DNA of 64,000 bases from an uncultured Candidatus Rokubacteria bacterium (GCA_963771355.1 CAVYTA010000005.1:928001-992000); one strand, 5' to 3'. Shown: positions 1,393 to 12,552, counted from the stretch's first letter. Numbers and translations are program-made. The notes: a model not told the origin generated them from the sequence alone.

Positions 1393-2043
1393 ATGAAGAT
1401 CTTTCTCGATTCCGCCAACGTGAACGAGCTGAAGGAAGGCGTGGCCATGGGCCTCGTCGACGGCTGCACCACCAACCCCTCGCTCATCGCCAAGGAGAAG
1501 CGGCCCTTCCGGCCGCTGGTGGAGGAGATCTGCGCCATCGTGCCGGGCGACGTGAGCCTGGAGGTGGTGGCCACCGACTTCGACGGCATGGTGAAGGAGG
1601 GCAAGGAGCTGGCCCAGGTGGCCTCGAACGTGGTGGTCAAGTGCCCCCTCACCAAGGATGGGCTCAAGGCGGTGAAGCATCTGAGCGGGCTGGGCATCCG
1701 CGTCAACCAGACGCTCTGCTTCTCGGCCCCCCAGGCGCTGCTCTCGGCCAAGGCCGGTGCCACCTATATCAGCCCATTCCTGGGGCGCCTGGACGACATC
1801 GGCGCGGTGGGCATGGACCTCATCCGCGACATCTGCCAGATCTACTCGAATTACGGCTACAAGACCCAGGTGCTGGCGGCCTCCATCCGCAATCCCATCC
1901 ACGTGGTGGACGCCGCCAAGGCGGGGGCGCACGTGGCCACCATGCCCTTCAGCGTGCTCGAGATGCTGATGAAGCACCCCCTCACGGATATCGGGCTCAA
2001 GAAGTTCCTGGACGACTGGAACAAGTCCGGCTCAAAGATCTAG
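1393..2043 (+). CDS. tal: Transaldolase / fructose-6-phosphate aldolase family
   Basis: [47 protein letters not shown] upstream. Confidence 0.9.
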
Positions 2044-2084
2044 TTCCACCCGTCCGGCCCTCCTCGCCCGTATACCTCAGCGAG

Positions 2085-2618
2085 ATGGAGAGCGAACGAG
2101 GGCTGATGCGGCGGGTAGCGCGGGGAGACGAGGCGGCCTTCACCGAGCTGGTGGAGGGCTACGGGCCAAAGCTCCTCGCGGTGGCCCGCCGGCTGCTGGG
2201 GTCCCGGGCGGACGCGGAGGACGCGGTCCAGCGCGCGCTGCTCCAGTGCTATCAGGGCGCGGCGGGCTACGAGCCGCGGTGGGCCGTCTCCACCTGGCTC
2301 TACCGCATCCTCACCAATATCTGCGTGGACGAGCTGCGCCGCCGCACGGTGCGCCACGCCTACGCCGCCGCCCCGCCCGCGGAGTCCCTGTCCCCCTTCG
2401 ACGCGCCCGGCGACGCCGGCCGGCGCATCGACGTGGCCCGGGCCCTCGCGCGCGTGCCCCGCGAGGCGCGCGTGCTCCTCGCGCTCCACTACGTCAACGG
2501 GCTCGGCAATGCCGAGCTCGCGCGCATCCGCGGCATCTCGATCAATACCGTGAAGAGCCAGCTCGCGCGCGGCAAGGGCATTCTGCGCGCCGCGCTGGCC
2601 GAAGGAGACCCCGCATGA
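2085..2618 (+). CDS. ECF RNA polymerase sigma-70 factor
   Basis: GDEAAFTELV, DAEDAVQ, TWLYRILTNICVD (region 2); GISINTVKSQLARG (region 4); start at ATG 2085 inside ORF 1641..2618. Confidence 0.88.
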   Translation: MESERGLMRRVARGDEAAFTELVEGYGPKLLAVARRLLGSRADAEDAVQRALLQCYQGAAGYEPRWAVSTWLYRILTNICVDELRRRTVRHAYAAAPPAESLSPFDAPGDAGRRIDVARALARVPREARVLLALHYVNGLGNAELARIRGISINTVKSQLARGKGILRAALAEGDPA

Positions 2619-3328
2619 AGACCGATCTCGATCGTCTGCTCGTCGACTATTTCCAGCCGGAGCCGCCCGCCGCGGGACTGGCCCGGCGCGTCCTCCGAGA
2701 GGCCACCGTGGCCGGGCGCGAGGCCGAGGACCTGGTGGACCGGCTCGCCATCGCGGCGACGCCGCAAGGCATCAGCCTGATCCGTCCGGGCCGTCAGGCG
2801 CGGGTGGAGACCGCGGCCGGGCGCCGGCTGGTGGACCGGGCGCGCGAGGAGCTGCACCAGTACTTCCAGGGACAGCGCGCCTTCTTCTCGGTGCCGGTGG
2901 ACCTCTCGGCGGCGCCCGACTTCCAGACCAAGGTGCTCCAGGCCGCGGGCGCAATCCCCTTCGGCCAGGCCCGTCCCTATGCGTGGGTGGCGAAGCGCAT
3001 CGGCCATCCGCGCGCGGTGCGGGCGGTGGGCACCGCGCTGGGGAAAAATCCGGTGCCGCTCATCGTGCCCTGCCACCGCGTGCTCAAGAGCGACGGCGGA
3101 GTCGGCGGCTACATCTTCGGAACCTCCGTGAAGCAGCGCCTCCTCCGGCTCGAGCGGGTGACCCCGGTGCTCGAGGGATGCACCAGCACCCATATCGTCT
3201 GCCGGCTGGGGTGCCCCCAGCTCCGGCGCGCCAAGCCGAGCAATCGCGTGGTCTTCGCCTCCGTGGAGGACGCGCGCTCGGTCGGCTACCGGCCCTGCCG
3301 CGTCTGCCGGCCCTCGCAGGCGGCATGA
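2615..3328 (+). CDS. ogt: Methylated-DNA--protein-cysteine methyltransferase with C-terminal Ada metal-binding domain
   Basis: RAVGTALGKNPVPLIVPCHRV active site; C-terminal CRLGC...GYRPCRVC; ATGA overlap with the sigma gene. Confidence 0.88.
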   Translation: MKTDLDRLLVDYFQPEPPAAGLARRVLREATVAGREAEDLVDRLAIAATPQGISLIRPGRQARVETAAGRRLVDRAREELHQYFQGQRAFFSVPVDLSAAPDFQTKVLQAAGAIPFGQARPYAWVAKRIGHPRAVRAVGTALGKNPVPLIVPCHRVLKSDGGVGGYIFGTSVKQRLLRLERVTPVLEGCTSTHIVCRLGCPQLRRAKPSNRVVFASVEDARSVGYRPCRVCRPSQAA

Positions 3329-4038
3329 GCGATCTGGCCGCCCGCGTCGCCGGCCTTGCCCTGGGAGGCCATCGGGGCCGAGCTGGACGCGCGCGGCTTC
3401 GCCACCACTGGACCCGCTGCTCGACGCGGCGGAGTGCGCCGAGCTGGCCGCGCTGCTATGGCGAGGAGCGCCGCTTCCGGAGCCGCGTGGACATGGCGCG
3501 CTTTCGCTTCGGAGTGGGCGAGTACAAGTACTTCGCCGCTCCGCTCCCCGAGCCGGTGGCGACACTCCGCGAGCGCCTCTACCCGCGCCTGGCGCCCATC
3601 GCCAACCGCTGGATGGAGCGGCTCGGCACGCGCGAGCGCTACCCGGACGCTCTGGACGGGCTCGCCCGCCTCTGCGCCCGTCATGGCCAGACCAAGCCCA
3701 CGCCGCTCCTGCTGCACTACACCGCCGGCGGCTATAACTGCCTGCACCAGGATCTCTACGGGGCGGTGGCGTTTCCGCTCCAGGCCACCGTGCTGCTGAG
3801 CGACCCGGCGGCGGATTTCACCGGGGGCGAGTTCCTGCTGGTGGAGCAGCGCCCCCGCGCCCAGTCGGCCGGGCACGTGGTCCCGCTGCGACAGGGGGAA
3901 GCGGTGCTGTTCGCCACGCGCCACCGGCCCGCCCGGGGCGCCCGCGGCTGGTATCGCGCCCAGCTCCGCCACGGCGTGAGCGAGGTACGGTCGGGCGAGC
4001 GCTACACGCTCGGCGTCATCTTCCACGACGCGGAGTGA
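3325..4038 (+). CDS. 2OG-Fe(II) oxygenase, DUF2086-like; three apparent +1 frameshifts near the 5' end
   Basis: GEYKYF, YNCLHQDLYG, GGEFLLVEQRPR, LRHGVS, GVIFHDAE; a coherent N-terminus is spread over three frames at 3356-3460. Confidence 0.82.
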   Translation: MSDLAARVAGLALGGHRGRAGRARLRHHWTRCSTRRSAPSWPRCYGEERRFRSRVDMARFRFGVGEYKYFAAPLPEPVATLRERLYPRLAPIANRWMERLGTRERYPDALDGLARLCARHGQTKPTPLLLHYTAGGYNCLHQDLYGAVAFPLQATVLLSDPAADFTGGEFLLVEQRPRAQSAGHVVPLRQGEAVLFATRHRPARGARGWYRAQLRHGVSEVRSGERYTLGVIFHDAE

Positions 4039-5969: not shown

Positions 5970-8023
5970 TTACGGACGCACGCAGTTGATGTAGGTCCAG
6001 CAGCAGCGGAACGCGTCCCGGCCGCCGAACAGCGTGTCCATCGCGTGGCGGATGAGGGCCAGCCGGTCGGCGACGGCTTCCCCCGCGGGCGCCTTGCCGT
6101 CGATCTTGGCGGAGCCGCCCACCCAGCCCAGCACCGCCTCGTGGTAGGCGCTGAGGAATTCGAACCAGTCGGCGACTTGGGCCTCGATGGAGCGCGCCCG
6201 ACGTCCTCCACCGCGAAGCCGGCTTGCTCGAGTTCGCGCAGGTAGAAGTCCAGCGGGCGCACCGGCAGGAACACCTGATCGCGGTGGGCGAGGTGCGCCT
6301 GGATGCGGGGCGCGTCGTCGAGCAGGGGCCGGTAGGCAGCATAGCGCGCTTCGTTGCGGACCAGACCGGTCGCGACCTCGTGGATGGCCCAAACCGTCTC
6401 GTCCAGGAGCCATTCACTGGGCCCGGCGTGGGGATTGCGGATATTGCCCGACTGTACGAAGGCGCGCCCGCCCGGCCGCAGCACGCGGGCCCAGGAGCCG
6501 AGGGTGTCGGCGAGGTCCCGGTACAGATGGATGGCGTTGGTGGAGGCGAGCACGTCCGCCTTGCGCGCCAGCAGCTCCGGCCCCATCACCTCCTCGAGGA
6601 GCTCGAGCCGCCGCGCCTCCTTGAGCCAGCGCAGGAGCCGGAAGCCGATGCGCTCCTCGCCGCCGAACTTGTCGAGGGCGACGCGGAGGAACTTGGGGGA
6701 GCTGTCCACGATCAGCGTCCCGACGTGGCGGTCGAAGATTCTCAGGTTGAGCCGATCGAGGAGGATCCCGGTGCCCCCCGAGTAGTCGATGAGGAGCTGG
6801 CCATCTTCGAGGTGGCGCGCCAGGTCCTCGACCGTCGGATCGAGGTTCCGGTACCAGCCGTGGTTCTCGACGGTGTCGTACCGGAGGCCGAAGGTGTCCA
6901 TGGGCTGCTGGACCCAGTCCTGCTCGGGAATGCGCGCGAAGCCGGAGGGCCACTGGAAGCGCCTCCGCGGCCCGCGCGCCGACTGGATGGGGGCGCTGAC
7001 GGCGGCGTGGATGCGCAGAAGATCCGGGATGGTGGCGGCCGGCCGCCGGCCCCAGCCGCACTCGGTGGCGACCCCGAATCCGGACACGAAGCGGTGGGCC
7101 GTCTCGATGCGGCGGCGCGTGCCCTCGACGCCGTCGGTGTGGTGCAGCAGACCCAGGTAGAGCTCGGTCTCGGCGCGCAGGCGGAGATCCCGCAGCGGCG
7201 CATAGTAAGCCTCGTCGAGCCGCTCCCGCGGGACGGGCAGGTGGATCCAGGTGAGGGGCCGCCCCAGGCTCGCCGCCAGCGCATTGGCGACCTCGACGAG
7301 CTTGCCCGCGTCGGCCGGCTCCTTGAAGTGGCGATGCTGGACGTCGCCGTAGCAGAGGTGATAGCCGAGCTGGACGTCCGGGGGCACGTGGCGCGAGATC
7401 CGGAGCAGCCGCTCCAGGATGCCGCCCTTGACGTCGCCGAACCAGACCGGGAACACCCCCTCCAGCATCCCGAGCTCGAAATTGGTATCCCACTGGATGG
7501 CGAGCTGATCGTGCGGCAATTCCTGGAGGATGGTCCGGAGCTCGCCGAGCACCTGCTCCTCGTAGACGGGCTCGAGGAGCTCCTGATGCTCGGGCACCAC
7601 GAAGGCGCTGATGGGGGCGAGCGGGGTGGGCAGACAGACCTGGAAGCGACAGGCCACCGGCACCACGCCGTCACGCTTGAGGCGCGCGAAGACCCGATAG
7701 GAGGACAGTGCCGCGTCCGCATACCCGAGGGCGCCAAAGGTCACGCTCTCCGCGCGCGCGCCGGCGGCCAGGCGGACGCGGGGCAACGGCCGCCAGCTGT
7801 CGGCGCCGGGCGGCACCACCTCGAGCTGGCGCTGGGTGGTGAAGACGGGCAGCTGCCACACGATCCAGTCGGACCGGGGGCCGGTCTCGCCGTCAGGGAT
7901 GCGGCGGAGGCGGTCGCCGATCTCATCGGCGACGGTGCGGAACACGGCCTCCGAGCTGGCCAGCGGCACGCTGCCGACCAGATGGGCGCCGGATGCCGCG
8001 AGATCGGGGGAGACGTTGCTCAT
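5970..8023 (-). CDS. Fusion of a MetE/UROD-like Zn domain and a class I SAM-dependent methyltransferase; one frameshift near 6200
   Basis: HLVGSVPL, PDGETG, GYHLCYGD, ATECGWGR, then IDYSGGTG, IVDSSPKFL, TNAIHLY, VLRPGG; C-terminus continues in ORF 5970..6413. Confidence 0.72.
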
Positions 8024-8106: not shown

Positions 8107-9615
8107 TCAGGCGTTGATGTTGGCCTCGAGGATTGCCGGCGACACCTTCCAGGCGGCGGCCGGCTCCGCCTCCAGCCGTCGCTGCAAGGCCTCCAGCTCC
8201 CGCTTGAACAGGCCGAACGCCTCGGCTCCCGCGGCGTCCAGCGCGAGATAGCCGAAGTCCTGGAGCAGCGGCGCCCGACGCACGTGCAGGTTGAAGTTCG
8301 CGTTGACCAGTCGCTGATACACGTCGAGGGGCTCGCGCTGGCCGCTCCGGTAGACCCGCACCGGCTGGACGTGGGTCCACATCTGATAGTTCCAGAGGCC
8401 CGTGCCGAGGATCTCGTGCTCCACCGTCCCCATGTAGATGAACGCGGCGACCAGCCGCGCCAGGGAGAGCACCGTGAGCACGTCGCCGATCAGCGGCCGG
8501 ATCCCGCCGGGCACAGTGCGCTCGAGGGTCTCCGCCCAGGCCGCCACCGCGTGATCGCCGCGCAACGCCGCGTCGGACGCGTAGTAGAGCGCCAGGTAGC
8601 GCCGCGCGTGCGCGTGCATCACGTCGAAGTGCGCGGCGCGGTTCGCCAGGGCGGGCGTGTCGAAGCCGGCCCCGGCGATGCCCCGGCGCTCCGCGTCGCG
8701 GTGGGGGTCGAGCCCGGTGATGTCGTAGGCCGGCCAGGTCTCCGTGAAGAGCCCGCACATCCCGCGGTGGGTGAAGCTGAAGATCGAGTCGAACTCGCCC
8801 CCCGGGGACATCTGGCCCTTGGTCACGAGCTCGTTGCTGAACTGGGTCCCGAACATGTGGGGCCAGAGCAGGCGCCGCAGCGGGTGGGCGGCCGGCAGGC
8901 AGCTCCGGGTCGCGATGGCGAGGAGCCCCCCCGCGGCGAGGTGCACCCAGTTGAAGTGCCGCACCAGGGAGACATCGGTGGTGGCCGCGCAGAGCGCGAG
9001 CCGCGTCGCCAGCGACCAGCTCGCGTCCCCGGGCACGTTCGTCCCGAGCTCGCTCTCGATCCGCGCCGCCTCCAGGCGGCGGGCCCCCGCGTTCACGTTG
9101 AACAGCACCCGCACGCCCAGGGAGCGCAGGCCTTGATGGTGCTCGTGGCGGGCGAGCCGCCGCAGGTCCCACTGGAAGCCGCCCTCCGGCGCCCGCTCCA
9201 CGTAGCAGGCGTAGGGCCCCGCGACGGCGAGCGACCCCAGGTCCACGGGCCCCTGGTACTCGGGCGGCAGCACGGGAGCGGGAAGGCACTTACGGTGGGC
9301 GGGGGTGTAGGCCTCGTCCAGGGCCTTGTGCGGATCCGCGTCGATGGCGGGCAGTCCCGGCTCCATGGGCGAGAGTCCACCATAGAGACCCACCTGCAAG
9401 TCGTAGAAGCGGGACTTGATCGCGGACGCCTCGTCGTCGGGCACATGGTCGCCGACGAGAACGTTCGCCACCGGGATTCGCGGGAACTGACTGGCGAGGC
9501 TCACCGCCCCGAGCGTTCGCCCGTCGTCCTGCGGCACCGGGATCCGCACCGGCTTGTTCGCGCCGAGCTTCAGGACTGCGAGCTTGTTCCAGACCGCCTT
9601 GCGGACCGTCCACAT
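8107..9615 (-). CDS. Lipoxygenase-family protein (compact catalytic domain)
   Basis: WSLAT...RHFNWVHL (HxxxxH), LPAAHPLRRLLWPH, TVEHEILG, C-terminal EANINA resembling the LOX end motif. Confidence 0.8.
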   Translation of the reverse strand: MWTVRKAVWNKLAVLKLGANKPVRIPVPQDDGRTLGAVSLASQFPRIPVANVLVGDHVPDDEASAIKSRFYDLQVGLYGGLSPMEPGLPAIDADPHKALDEAYTPAHRKCLPAPVLPPEYQGPVDLGSLAVAGPYACYVERAPEGGFQWDLRRLARHEHHQGLRSLGVRVLFNVNAGARRLEAARIESELGTNVPGDASWSLATRLALCAATTDVSLVRHFNWVHLAAGGLLAIATRSCLPAAHPLRRLLWPHMFGTQFSNELVTKGQMSPGGEFDSIFSFTHRGMCGLFTETWPAYDITGLDPHRDAERRGIAGAGFDTPALANRAAHFDVMHAHARRYLALYYASDAALRGDHAVAAWAETLERTVPGGIRPLIGDVLTVLSLARLVAAFIYMGTVEHEILGTGLWNYQMWTHVQPVRVYRSGQREPLDVYQRLVNANFNLHVRRAPLLQDFGYLALDAAGAEAFGLFKRELEALQRRLEAEPAAAWKVSPAILEANINA

Positions 9616-9625
9616 GGGGCGTGAC

Positions 9626-12430
9626 CTATCGCGCTTCCTTGAAGGCGCCGTCCGACTCGGCGCCGCGGCGCGGCTTCCACTCGAGCGAGTAGTATTCCCC
9701 GCGGTCACGGGCCCAGGGGTCGAACGCGTTGACCACGTGGTCCAGCTCCGGCGCCAGCTCGGGGATGGCCCGGAGCAGCACCCGCTTCAGCGGCGAGACC
9801 TCCATCTCGTGACCGTTGGGCTGGCCCTTCTCCATGCGCGAGTCGGGGCCGTTCTGGTTCACCCACTGCACGCCGAGGTGGGTGTAGAACTCCGGCCGGA
9901 AGCTGGAGGTGAAGAACCGGTCGCTGAACAGCCGGCGCGAGGCGTTGAGGATGAACACCTGGAACTGCGTCTCGGAGATGGCGAAGCCGTGGGGCCGGGG
10001 GAACTCCGCCAGCCAGCCGACCACGGTGTCGACGTCCTCGACGTTGTCGACGAGCGAGCCGTCGGGATGGCCGAGGCAATCGGTGATCCGGCTGCCGTCG
10101 GCGTTGACCTGCGCGTCGGTGATGACCTTGGACGCGTCGCACCGGTGCTGCCCGTAGACTTGCCGCAGCAGGCCCACCAGCCGCTCCTGCTCCAGCCGCT
10201 CGGGCGAGCCCTTGGCCAGGCGCGTGTCGACGAAGTCGTCGAAACGGGTGAGCTGGCGCAGCCCGTACTGCCGCCGGAACTCGTTGAAGCGCGGGACGCC
10301 GCGCTCGCGGTCCCGGATCAGGTCCAGCGCGGCGACGTCGATCTTGCCCGTCGCGCTCTGCAGCCGCGGCAGCTCGAGGTTCTGGAGGAACTGCGGGTGG
10401 TTCTGCAGGGTGAGGGCGCCCAGGCGCTGCCGGCCCATCGAGAGCGCCCAGCTCGCGAGCCCGCGCTCGCGCATCGCCTGGGTGGCGCGCCCGCGGAACG
10501 ACTCGACCACGGGGACCTTCATGCGCACCAGGTTGGGATCGGCGTCCCACTGCCGGTACTCGATCAGGTCGGGGACGAGGGCATGCAGGCGATAGACGGT
10601 GACGAACTCCTCCGGGAAGTTGAACGGCGAGCCGAAGTGGTTGACCCCGCCGTTGACGTGCTCCGGGTTGGCCAGGCTCCAGGGGGCGCCGTCGGTCGTC
10701 TTGCCGCTGCCCAGGCCGAAGATTCCGGGCCCGGACGCGAAGACCGAGTACCACTGCGTGGTGGCCTTCTCGTCCGTCGAGGTCCCGAGGCGGGCGGTGA
10801 TGCGCTCGAGCGCCCGCTCGACGAGCTCGCGGCCGCGGAAGAGCCCGTGCCAGTTGGCGTTCATGCCCAGGTAGAGTGGCTCGTCATAGAGGAGCTGCGG
10901 TGTCCATTCGGTGGTGTGGATCTTGGCGATCCCCGCCGAGACCACGAGCCGCGCGACCTCGAAGAGCTCGTCGGCGGTGATGTCCCGATAGCGGATGACC
11001 AGGGCCGGCCGGTCGGGGTGGCGGAGCCCGGAGTCGGCATCAGGCGTCGCCGCCGCCTGCGTGCGGAAGGCGTCGACGAAGAGGTTGTGCTCGCGGGCGA
11101 ACACCGTGTGGTAGAAGCTCATCCCGATCGTCCAGTTGTCCGGGAAGCCGGTGGCCTCCTGGCCCGCCCACTGCGGCAGCATGGGATCGGACGGCTCGAG
11201 CAGCGGCAGGTAGCCCTGCCGCTCACCCGCGCCCGCCCGCTGGCCGAGGGAGACCAGCAGGAGCTTCGCGGCATCGCTGGGCGCGCGCTTCACGCGGCGG
11301 CGGGATGTCTCGTCGTGGCCGTAGATCTGCGAGGCGTCCCACCACGCGGTCACGTTGTTGTGCGTGGTCCGGTATGGCCGCGCCAGGTGCTCCTTGCCGC
11401 CGTGGCTGAAGGTCGCCGGGTCGCCGCTCTCGGCGATGAGCGCGGGGTCCACGCGGTCGCCCGGGCGACACCCCTGCGACGCCGCCGCGCAGCCGACCGC
11501 CATCGTCCCCGGCCCGTTCCGTCCCTCCTGCAGGTGGGAGAACCAGTCGTGCGTCATGAACTGGATCCAGAACGCGGCAAGCACGTTGAAGAACGGCGCC
11601 TTCTTGTAGTCGCAGTGGGCGTCCGCCGGCGCGCCCGGCAGGCCGTGGCCCTCGCGGCAGCGCTCCGGCTGCGACTGCGCCCGCGTGAAGAGCGTGCGGC
11701 TGATCACCTGCGGGTCCGGCGTGAGCAGACCCAGCCGATCGCCGTGGCGGTTGCGGGCGAGCGCGTCCTTGCCCAGCTCGGGGAACGTCGCCTCGAACTG
11801 CACGTTGCGGGCGAACGGCTGCTGCGACGATCCCATCAGCGGGTTCGTGATGTCGTTGCAGAGGCCGGTCAGGTGGCGGAAGCGGATCTGCTCACTTCGG
11901 CACACTTGCGTCCCGTCGCCGCCCACCGCCTCGTAGAGCGCGTGCCCCTTGGGAAGCCGCATCGCGGGCCAGACTTTCAGCGCCCGCCCGGCCACACCGT
12001 CGCGCCCGCGCACATAGTCCGGGTACGTGCCGCTGCTGTCGAACAGGTTGAACTTGATCAGCTCGATGCGCTGATACTCGAGATCGAGGAGCGCGCCGTC
12101 GATGCCCCGGCCGTCGGCGTCGAGGTGACCGGTCCCCGATCCGGGGAAGCGGCTGCCCGCGTCACCCGTTGCCCAGTAGCTCTGCCAGTCGAGCCAGGGC
12201 ACGCCGCGCCACGCCACCGCCCGCTCGCCGCCCCGGCAGCGCGCGGTGTCCTCCTGGACCTTTCCGAGGAATCGCTCGGCGCGCTCCTCGCCGATGGGAC
12301 GAAGCCCGCCCAGCGCCAGCCCGAGGCAGGCATCGATGGTTTCCCGCTTGGCGGCACAGCCTGCGAGGGTTACGGCGACGGTGAGGGTCGCCACGAGGCC
12401 GGCGACGGCGGGCGAGCTGGACAGGAGCAT
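9626..12430 (-). CDS. Heme peroxidase-cyclooxygenase superfamily protein, fatty acid alpha-dioxygenase-like; putative lipoprotein
   Basis: WIQFMTHDW, TAWWDASQIYG, AKIHTTEW, EEFVTVYRLH, RDRERGVPRFNEFRR, GFAISET, ASRRLFSDRFFT; LAGC lipobox; AGGAGG RBS before ATG 12430. Confidence 0.87.
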   Translation of the reverse strand: MLLSSSPAVAGLVATLTVAVTLAGCAAKRETIDACLGLALGGLRPIGEERAERFLGKVQEDTARCRGGERAVAWRGVPWLDWQSYWATGDAGSRFPGSGTGHLDADGRGIDGALLDLEYQRIELIKFNLFDSSGTYPDYVRGRDGVAGRALKVWPAMRLPKGHALYEAVGGDGTQVCRSEQIRFRHLTGLCNDITNPLMGSSQQPFARNVQFEATFPELGKDALARNRHGDRLGLLTPDPQVISRTLFTRAQSQPERCREGHGLPGAPADAHCDYKKAPFFNVLAAFWIQFMTHDWFSHLQEGRNGPGTMAVGCAAASQGCRPGDRVDPALIAESGDPATFSHGGKEHLARPYRTTHNNVTAWWDASQIYGHDETSRRRVKRAPSDAAKLLLVSLGQRAGAGERQGYLPLLEPSDPMLPQWAGQEATGFPDNWTIGMSFYHTVFAREHNLFVDAFRTQAAATPDADSGLRHPDRPALVIRYRDITADELFEVARLVVSAGIAKIHTTEWTPQLLYDEPLYLGMNANWHGLFRGRELVERALERITARLGTSTDEKATTQWYSVFASGPGIFGLGSGKTTDGAPWSLANPEHVNGGVNHFGSPFNFPEEFVTVYRLHALVPDLIEYRQWDADPNLVRMKVPVVESFRGRATQAMRERGLASWALSMGRQRLGALTLQNHPQFLQNLELPRLQSATGKIDVAALDLIRDRERGVPRFNEFRRQYGLRQLTRFDDFVDTRLAKGSPERLEQERLVGLLRQVYGQHRCDASKVITDAQVNADGSRITDCLGHPDGSLVDNVEDVDTVVGWLAEFPRPHGFAISETQFQVFILNASRRLFSDRFFTSSFRPEFYTHLGVQWVNQNGPDSRMEKGQPNGHEMEVSPLKRVLLRAIPELAPELDHVVNAFDPWARDRGEYYSLEWKPRRGAESDGAFKEAR

Positions 12431-12552
12431 GGGGCACCTCCTACTTCGGGTCGGAGCGGCTGCGGAGATTCTATACTCGGGCGGAGGAAAGCGTGTCATC
12501 GCCGGTCGAACTTCGGGCGCTCGACCCCGCCCGGGTGCGCTAGGATCGCCCC

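Follow-up and report, generated by a model that had tools for sequence, protein, structure and literature searches.

The window, by which we mean the whole stretch of 64 000 nucleotides that was analysed, encodes an ECF sigma factor followed by a fusion of an O6-alkylguanine alkyltransferase with an Ada-type zinc module (Ogt-AdaZn) and by a 2OG-Fe(II) oxygenase. We propose, with a probability of roughly 0.55, that the Ogt-AdaZn protein is a soluble anti-sigma factor, which would release the sigma factor after taking up alkyl groups from damaged DNA. This role is suggested by the position of its gene, by the anti-sigma ancestry of its relatives, and by the fact that no other regulator or operator was found. 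The pairing of an ECF sigma factor with Ogt is already catalogued in the group descriptions of PMC7826278 (ECF122 and ECF203), in which the mechanism is not given. What is new here is a specific promoter motif with a predicted regulon that links the sigma factor to alkylation repair and efflux, together with a paralogous circuit. If the repair protein was the anti-sigma factor, the gap in ECF122 and ECF203, i.e. the missing anti-sigma factor and mechanism, would be closed; DNA alkylation would reach transcription by a route that uses neither the HTH of Ada nor SOS, and the damage response would be wired unlike the textbook Ada system. The promoter and the predicted regulon make the proposal directly testable, as two genes and a 30-nt promoter could be carried over to E. 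coli.

The sigma-Ogt unit and its promoter-like motif

The three genes were consecutive on the plus strand (Table 1) and joined by ATGA overlaps at 2615–2618 and 3325–3328, as the original prediction had described; the observation was confirmed as real and conserved. The genes upstream of the sigma unit varied between relatives. In one RNA run, short contigs spanned all three genes, these contigs being uninformative on strand, start and level. Farther along the window, on the minus strand (8107–12499), a gene for a haem peroxidase of the animal type (PF03098) adjoined one for a lipoxygenase-like protein (PF00305); the two may form an oxylipin pathway.

Table 1. Features of the sigma-Ogt locus, in window coordinates
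Feature	Coordinates	Strand	Remarks
Transaldolase-family gene	1393..2043	+	Context only; stop codon 1 nt 5' of the −35 box
Bipartite ECF-type promoter-like motif	2045..2074	+	−35 TCCACCC at 2045–2051, −10 CGTATA at 2069–2074
ECF sigma factor, 177 aa	2085..2618	+	Regions 2 and 4 only, without regulatory extension
Ogt-AdaZn fusion, 237 aa	2615..3328	+	Candidate anti-sigma factor and alkylation sensor
N-terminal helix-Pro-helix segment of Ogt-AdaZn	2615..2740	+	Candidate anti-sigma domain remnant
O6-alkylguanine alkyltransferase catalytic domain	2918..3160	+	Acceptor Cys153 (codon 3071–3073) in PCHR
Ada-type Cys4 zinc module	3176..3313	+	Cys196 (codon 3200–3202) equals Ada Cys38; no AraC HTH after it
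2OG-Fe(II) oxygenase, PF09859 (Oxygenase-NA)	3325..4038	+	Three probable assembly insertions scramble the N-terminus

The middle protein contained an Ogt DNA-binding/catalytic domain at residues 102–182 (PF01035, E = 5.5e-29) with the PCHRV motif, followed by an Ada_Zn_binding domain at residues 188–233 (E = 2.5e-10), and it scored 95 bits against TIGR00589 (cut-off 46.4). No HTH family of Pfam was matched at E ≤ 1. When aligned with E. coli N-Ada (PDB 1adn/1zgw), C196, C200, C228 and C231 corresponded to C38, C42, C69 and C72. These four zinc cysteines and the PCHR acceptor Cys153 were invariant in 32/32 aligned homologues, and so were the other DNA-binding and catalytic residues of the Ogt domain, Y122, R136, H154 and R155. 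The position of Ada Arg71 was occupied by Val230 and, across the 32 sequences, by V (25), A (4), L (2) or T (1), but never by Arg. The predicted structure showed an Ogt body (mean pLDDT of 83.7), whose top Foldseek matches were all Ogt/MGMT. With PCHR, the base-flipping Arg and the predicted two-domain fold all found, the middle protein can be assigned, on these predicted features, to the Ogt/MGMT alkyltransferases. The description of this protein in the original prediction was confirmed: a helical segment near the N-terminus (PPAAGLARRVL, residues 17–27), an Ogt domain with PCHRV, a C-terminal Ada zinc domain with all four cysteines, no AraC HTH, and a domain order that is the reverse of that in E. 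coli Ada.

The product of the first gene matched Sigma70_r2 and Sigma70_r4_2 (PF04542 and PF08281, both above the Pfam cut-off) and scored 88.4 bits against TIGR02937 (cut-off 42.9). Among the best 30 loci from 61 related genomes, it was found that a sigma gene lay directly 5' of the Ogt-AdaZn gene in 26, the window's own locus counted. One of the four remaining loci was truncated by a contig edge; in the three others the match began only at residue 38–40, so that these sigma-less copies were without the N-terminal segment. The oxygenase gene lay 3' of Ogt-AdaZn in only 13/30 loci. In many genera, the Ogt gene was followed not by the oxygenase but by a gene of the Amidohydro_2 family whose product has a hydrophobic N-terminus (L075:1457-2278; L106-L165). 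Another phylum, to which a Dehalococcoidia record belongs, was sampled with 201 genomes; 71 had a match, and the ECF sigma gene was directly upstream in 29 of the 30 Chloroflexota loci listed. The pairing was also present in both actinobacterial records (2/2), from Nonomuraea and from plasmid 2 of Rubrobacter radiotolerans (RRADSPS_RS15275/RS17130), a cultured host. The constant unit is the sigma factor with Ogt(-Zn), and the third gene is variable. Conservation of the neighbourhood, which had been put forward earlier as a check, was thus seen for the sigma-Ogt linkage in all three samples but failed for the oxygenase.

Close relatives were mostly labelled Rokubacteria or Methylomirabilota. 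In a 55-sequence tree, the 13 sigma factors of this clade formed one branch (100/97), which was not joined with support to the sigma factors of Chloroflexota and Actinomycetota, and a single origin for all partner-linked sigma factors was unsupported by this tree. Because the taxon differs and the clade was unjoined to the actinobacterial-type sigma factors, the window sigma was not filed in ECF122 or ECF203. Natural sigma-Ogt fusions were also considered; 5 of 18 longer matches had both domains, but all five were single sequences with visible frameshifts and were discarded as artefacts.

The oxygenase matched PF09859 (Oxygenase-NA, E = 3.2e-81) and otherwise only PF13640. The AlkB family PF13532 was absent among its Pfam matches, so the AlkB-like character that had been ascribed to it was not borne out. 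Compared with two congeners, its gene had one extra base near each of 3352, 3417 and 3455, which together make up one codon and put the first ∼44 codons out of frame; the original prediction had not noted this. Contigs of two studies, otherwise identical to the window (0 other differences), were without all three bases. The insertions are most likely assembly errors, and because they are absent from these matching contigs, the oxygenase gene is probably intact in life. A methyltransferase-like reading frame at 6180–6260 of the window (minus strand) also seemed to shift frame, probably through another assembly indel.

The TCCACCC/CGTATA motif, with a spacer of about 16–17 nt, ended 10 nt 5' of the sigma ATG, suggesting that the sigma transcript may be leaderless or near-leaderless. 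It matched once in the window, against 0 in 100 shuffles, and was found 5' of the sigma genes in 21/25 relatives and in 91 of the 98 genomes with a detected sigma gene. The exact pattern occurred at 177 sites in 115/159 family genomes, compared with 16 for a reversed control, and at sigma sites the ATG lay 8–14 nt past the −10 box in 37/48. When the own genome was scored with a matrix trained without the window's site, the window site reached 33.9, one other strong site 29.5, and the next 18.9. The second strong site preceded an MFS gene (L047:239-1456; contig C5, about 441.2 kb), homologues of which carried the motif in several genera. Across 118 sites, no base 5' of the −35 box was conserved except the adjoining T, and an Ada box (AAT-N6-GCAA) was found upstream of none. 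A sigma-70 reading of the motif was rejected, because TTCCAC and TATACC are 21 nt apart, which is too far. The paralogous sigma described below was rejected as the reader of the window motif, since it has a motif of its own. The window motif was present in 17/19 genomes with the window sigma and no paralogue; it was also present in 23/51 genomes with the paralogue and no window-sigma match, a search that misses real copies (G096, G109, G115, G119, G122). Judged by position, spacing and co-occurrence, the window sigma probably reads TCCACCC/CGTATA.

Predicted regulon

The genes behind 116 distinct sites were read, comprising the loci of the first search and 81 sites from 33 multi-site genomes; the selection from the 177 was not random, as multi-site genomes and related species are over-represented. 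Targets were labelled with queries taken from the sites themselves and named by Pfam. Sigma genes followed at 48 sites and other genes or none at 68. Repair-type genes accounted for 13/68 non-sigma sites: six preceded a relocated, stand-alone PF09859 oxygenase (followed at least twice by an AlkB-family gene), three an AlkB-family gene, two an orphan Ogt, and two an Ada-Zn/DinB-type gene, one of which was without the zinc module. The AlkB, Ogt and Ada-Zn cases were independent of the operon and came from six genera (by genome genus labels); the oxygenase sites count for a repair regulon only by association. As the oxygenase gene retains the promoter when away from the operon, the uncharacterised PF09859 oxygenase would be tied to the alkylation response. 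One target behind the motif (L069:335-1036) consisted of a lone Ada-Zn module joined to a DinB/DUF1706 domain, and DinB-type genes were also found 3' of AlkB-family genes at L152 and L178.

The commonest non-operon targets were transporters, at 34/68 non-sigma sites (19 MFS, 15 EamA). The rest preceded luciferase-like monooxygenases (4), small membrane proteins (4), a thioesterase (1), or another or no gene (12). The small predicted membrane proteins (for example L140:98-469) belonged to no Pfam family, and another small membrane protein of no Pfam family lay behind a second copy of the paralogue motif (L229:2375-2782). In the window's own genome, no motif was found at the AlkB-family gene, the four HhH-GPD genes or the stand-alone Ogt (best score of 1.0, compared with 33.9 for the window site). 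The excess of transporters and the motif-less repair genes of the own genome speak against a pure repair reading.

A related explanation is that the partner is indeed an anti-sigma factor, but that electrophiles or alkylating natural products hit its cysteines, the output being mainly efflux and detoxification with repair secondary. The transporter and luciferase-like monooxygenase sites are consistent with it, as is the MFS gene in the ECF203 context described in PMC7826278. The paralogue motif points the same way: its 20 sampled non-operon sites preceded DinB/DUF1706 (6), DUF2652 (6), SRPBCC-like (4) and other genes (4), and none a repair gene. However, the invariance of Y122, R136, C153, H154 and R155 in the 32 homologues, and the presence of the motif before AlkB-family, Ogt and Ada-Zn genes in the six genera, argue against such a signal, and we consider this explanation quite unlikely.

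The N-terminal segment and a possible anti-sigma ancestry

In the N-terminal segment of the window protein, helices were predicted at residues 4–12 and 22–42 with low confidence, and conservation among the 32 homologues was high at D6 (30), L9 (31), F13 (31), L22 (26) and R25 (28). The zinc motif HxxxCxxC was absent from the window protein but present in relatives and in the paralogue. Within a set of 150 representatives, an N-terminal HxxxCxxC was found in 12 of the 66 with Ogt and a C-terminal zinc module, and zf-HC2 reached the Pfam cut-off in 6 of 12 proteins of this kind that were scanned. A profile of the HxxxCxxC-bearing N-termini matched RsiW over profile positions 2–76 (E = 1.1e-6), with weaker matches to ChrR, RslA-type and other anti-sigma chains; a single ZAS-bearing N-terminus searched against the PDB reached RsiW only at E = 1.3.

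The window segment itself gave weaker signals. Its profile reached 8 bits in 0/15 ZAS-bearing proteins, with an hhalign probability of 10%, and no signal was obtained against the tail of the paralogue (score of 9.75; shuffled maximum of 12.3). A transitive profile link through sequences of the second phylum gave probabilities of 61% and 59%. A hydrophobic-helix/PxxL motif, which was designed after viewing these sequences, occurred in 11/32 and 26/31 sigma-adjacent N-termini (1.7 and 3.6 expected from shuffling), whereas plain Ogts showed no enrichment (4/76 compared with 3.4). Both orphan Ogts directly behind the promoter were without the segment. A class I anti-sigma domain consists of four helices, three of which the window protein would be short of if its segment was a remnant. 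We regard the segment as a weak candidate for an anti-sigma domain remnant, representing at most the last helix and the helix that follows.

A unit of zf-HC2, Ogt and a divergent Cys4 module was found in the same genome at C6:467723-469272 (L229:723-2272). In this paralogue, an ECF sigma gene overlaps the zf-HC2-Ogt-Cys4 gene, and zf-HC2 scored just under the cut-off. The zf-HC2-Ogt-Cys4 protein occurred in 130/159 family genomes, with a sigma gene upstream in 29 of the 30 loci listed, and the paralogue motif, TTTCAC-N14/16-GGKGTCTCA, was found at 218 sites (control 0). A PF02805 search of the genome had given one match, missing the divergent zinc module of the paralogue, which is below the cut-off; a claim that the window holds the only Ada-Zn domain in the genome was undone by this module.

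The locus could also be explained if the sigma factor drives the promoter but is controlled in another way (a cascade, proteolysis or an unlinked inhibitor), the Ogt-Zn protein being no more than the operon's first effector. Repair genes often lie in one operon with their regulators, which counts for this explanation. It would also fit that direct comparison of the N-terminal segment with anti-sigma domains gave a weak signal or none, and the published ECF122 and ECF203 groups are described without an anti-sigma factor in the entries of PMC7826278. Nevertheless, relatives and the paralogue have full ZAS domains in the corresponding place, the segment is kept beside the sigma gene but not in either of the orphan Ogts driven by the promoter, the sigma factor has no extension, and no other neighbour is constant, not even the oxygenase. 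We therefore judge this explanation unlikely and prefer the anti-sigma role of the Ogt-AdaZn protein.

Comparison with known systems and proposed mechanism

ECF203 is described in PMC7826278 (Casas-Pastor et al. 2021) as an actinobacterial group with Ogt at +1, Ada_Zn_binding, MFS and TetR in its context and no anti-sigma factor, and TetR control is suggested there. The window resembles it in the ECF sigma factor, the O6-methylguanine methyltransferase at +1 and the Ada_Zn_binding domain. In contrast, ECF203 is 100% actinobacterial in that description, with a conserved TetR and without a conserved promoter, whereas the window belongs to a Methylomirabilota/Rokubacteria clade with a sharply conserved promoter, and no TetR was found among its three genes or the scanned neighbours. 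ECF122 is likewise described with Ogt at +1, no anti-sigma factor and a predicted promoter CTCAC/CGTCTAC (PMC7826278), and PMC8999054 places it under unknown mechanism. Its promoter resembles, but is not identical to, TCCACCC/CGTATAC of the window; TTTCAC/GTCTCA of the paralogue looks at least as close. Unlike the window, ECF122 is 100% actinobacterial and has no Ada-Zn domain listed in its description. A literature search, which was short of most subscription papers, gave no paper on the function of PF09859/DUF2086, on a TCCACCC/CGTATA promoter or on an Ogt-type anti-sigma factor.

With the ZAS (class I ASD) factors RsiW, ChrR and RslA, the window protein shares the +1 position and coupled translation, and zf-HC2 is found in its relatives and paralogue, but the window protein itself differs in having no HxxxCxxC. 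A soluble anti-sigma factor fused to a sensor domain has a precedent in ChrR.

Like E. coli Ada, the window protein has both suicide methyl-acceptor modules, cysteines included, and belongs to a unit, predicted to be autoregulated, that is associated with a 2OG-Fe oxygenase; the predicted targets of this unit include AlkB-family genes. Unlike in Ada, the domain order is reversed, the AraC HTH, Arg71 and the A/B boxes are absent, and the output is predicted to pass through a dedicated sigma factor. AdaA-type Zn+AraC proteins occurred in 47/159 family genomes, many of them with the window sigma, and none was found in the window's own genome. Because of this co-occurrence, the unit is not simply a replacement for Ada.

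An Ada-like positive control was also weighed, in which the methylated zinc module would bind DNA or the sigma factor as a co-activator, the sigma factor replacing the specificity of the HTH. The four invariant zinc cysteines, aligned with those of N-Ada, would suit such a role, and methylation of C38 is described in PMC4437013 as raising the DNA affinity of Ada by an electrostatic switch. On the other hand, R45 and R71 are the residues described as reading the Ada A box (PMC4437013; their roles also in PMC3788762), and in the window protein the HTH and Arg71 are lost and no upstream box is conserved. Sigma-adjacent Ogts without a zinc module exist (L026), in line with the ECF122 description, and relatives carry anti-sigma domains. 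A co-activator role is therefore considered very unlikely.

The preferred anti-sigma mechanism would proceed as follows. The sigma factor would read TCCACCC/CGTATA and transcribe its own operon. Basal transcription and coupled translation would yield sigma factor and partner at about 1:1, and the N-terminal helices of the partner would hold the sigma factor. Irreversible methylation of Cys153, to which Cys196 would add a second input, would then cause the partner to unfold or to be removed. Human MGMT loses stability after alkylation. Cys153 is shared by every version of the pair; it is favoured as the main trigger, since some sigma-linked partners have no zinc module. The free sigma factor would raise expression of the operon and of unlinked oxygenase, AlkB-family, Ogt, Ada-Zn/DinB and MFS/EamA exporter genes, and newly made, unmethylated partner would reset the switch.

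At least three sigma/promoter sets were found with the sensor, namely TCCACCC/CGTATA, TTTCAC/GTCTCA (paralogue) and TGCAACC/GTGTT (Chloroflexota and Actinomycetota, read by eye). It may tentatively be suggested, at somewhat less than even odds, that these sets represent a second, widespread architecture of the adaptive response, in which a suicide enzyme derived from an anti-sigma fusion would count lesions by self-consumption and thereby free a dedicated sigma factor. With several such sets, a single soil bacterium would operate a repair-and-efflux circuit alongside a separate circuit for detoxification. In the Chloroflexota and Actinomycetota pairs (L192-L223), the upstream motif seen by eye was TGCAACC...GTGTT, different from that of the window.
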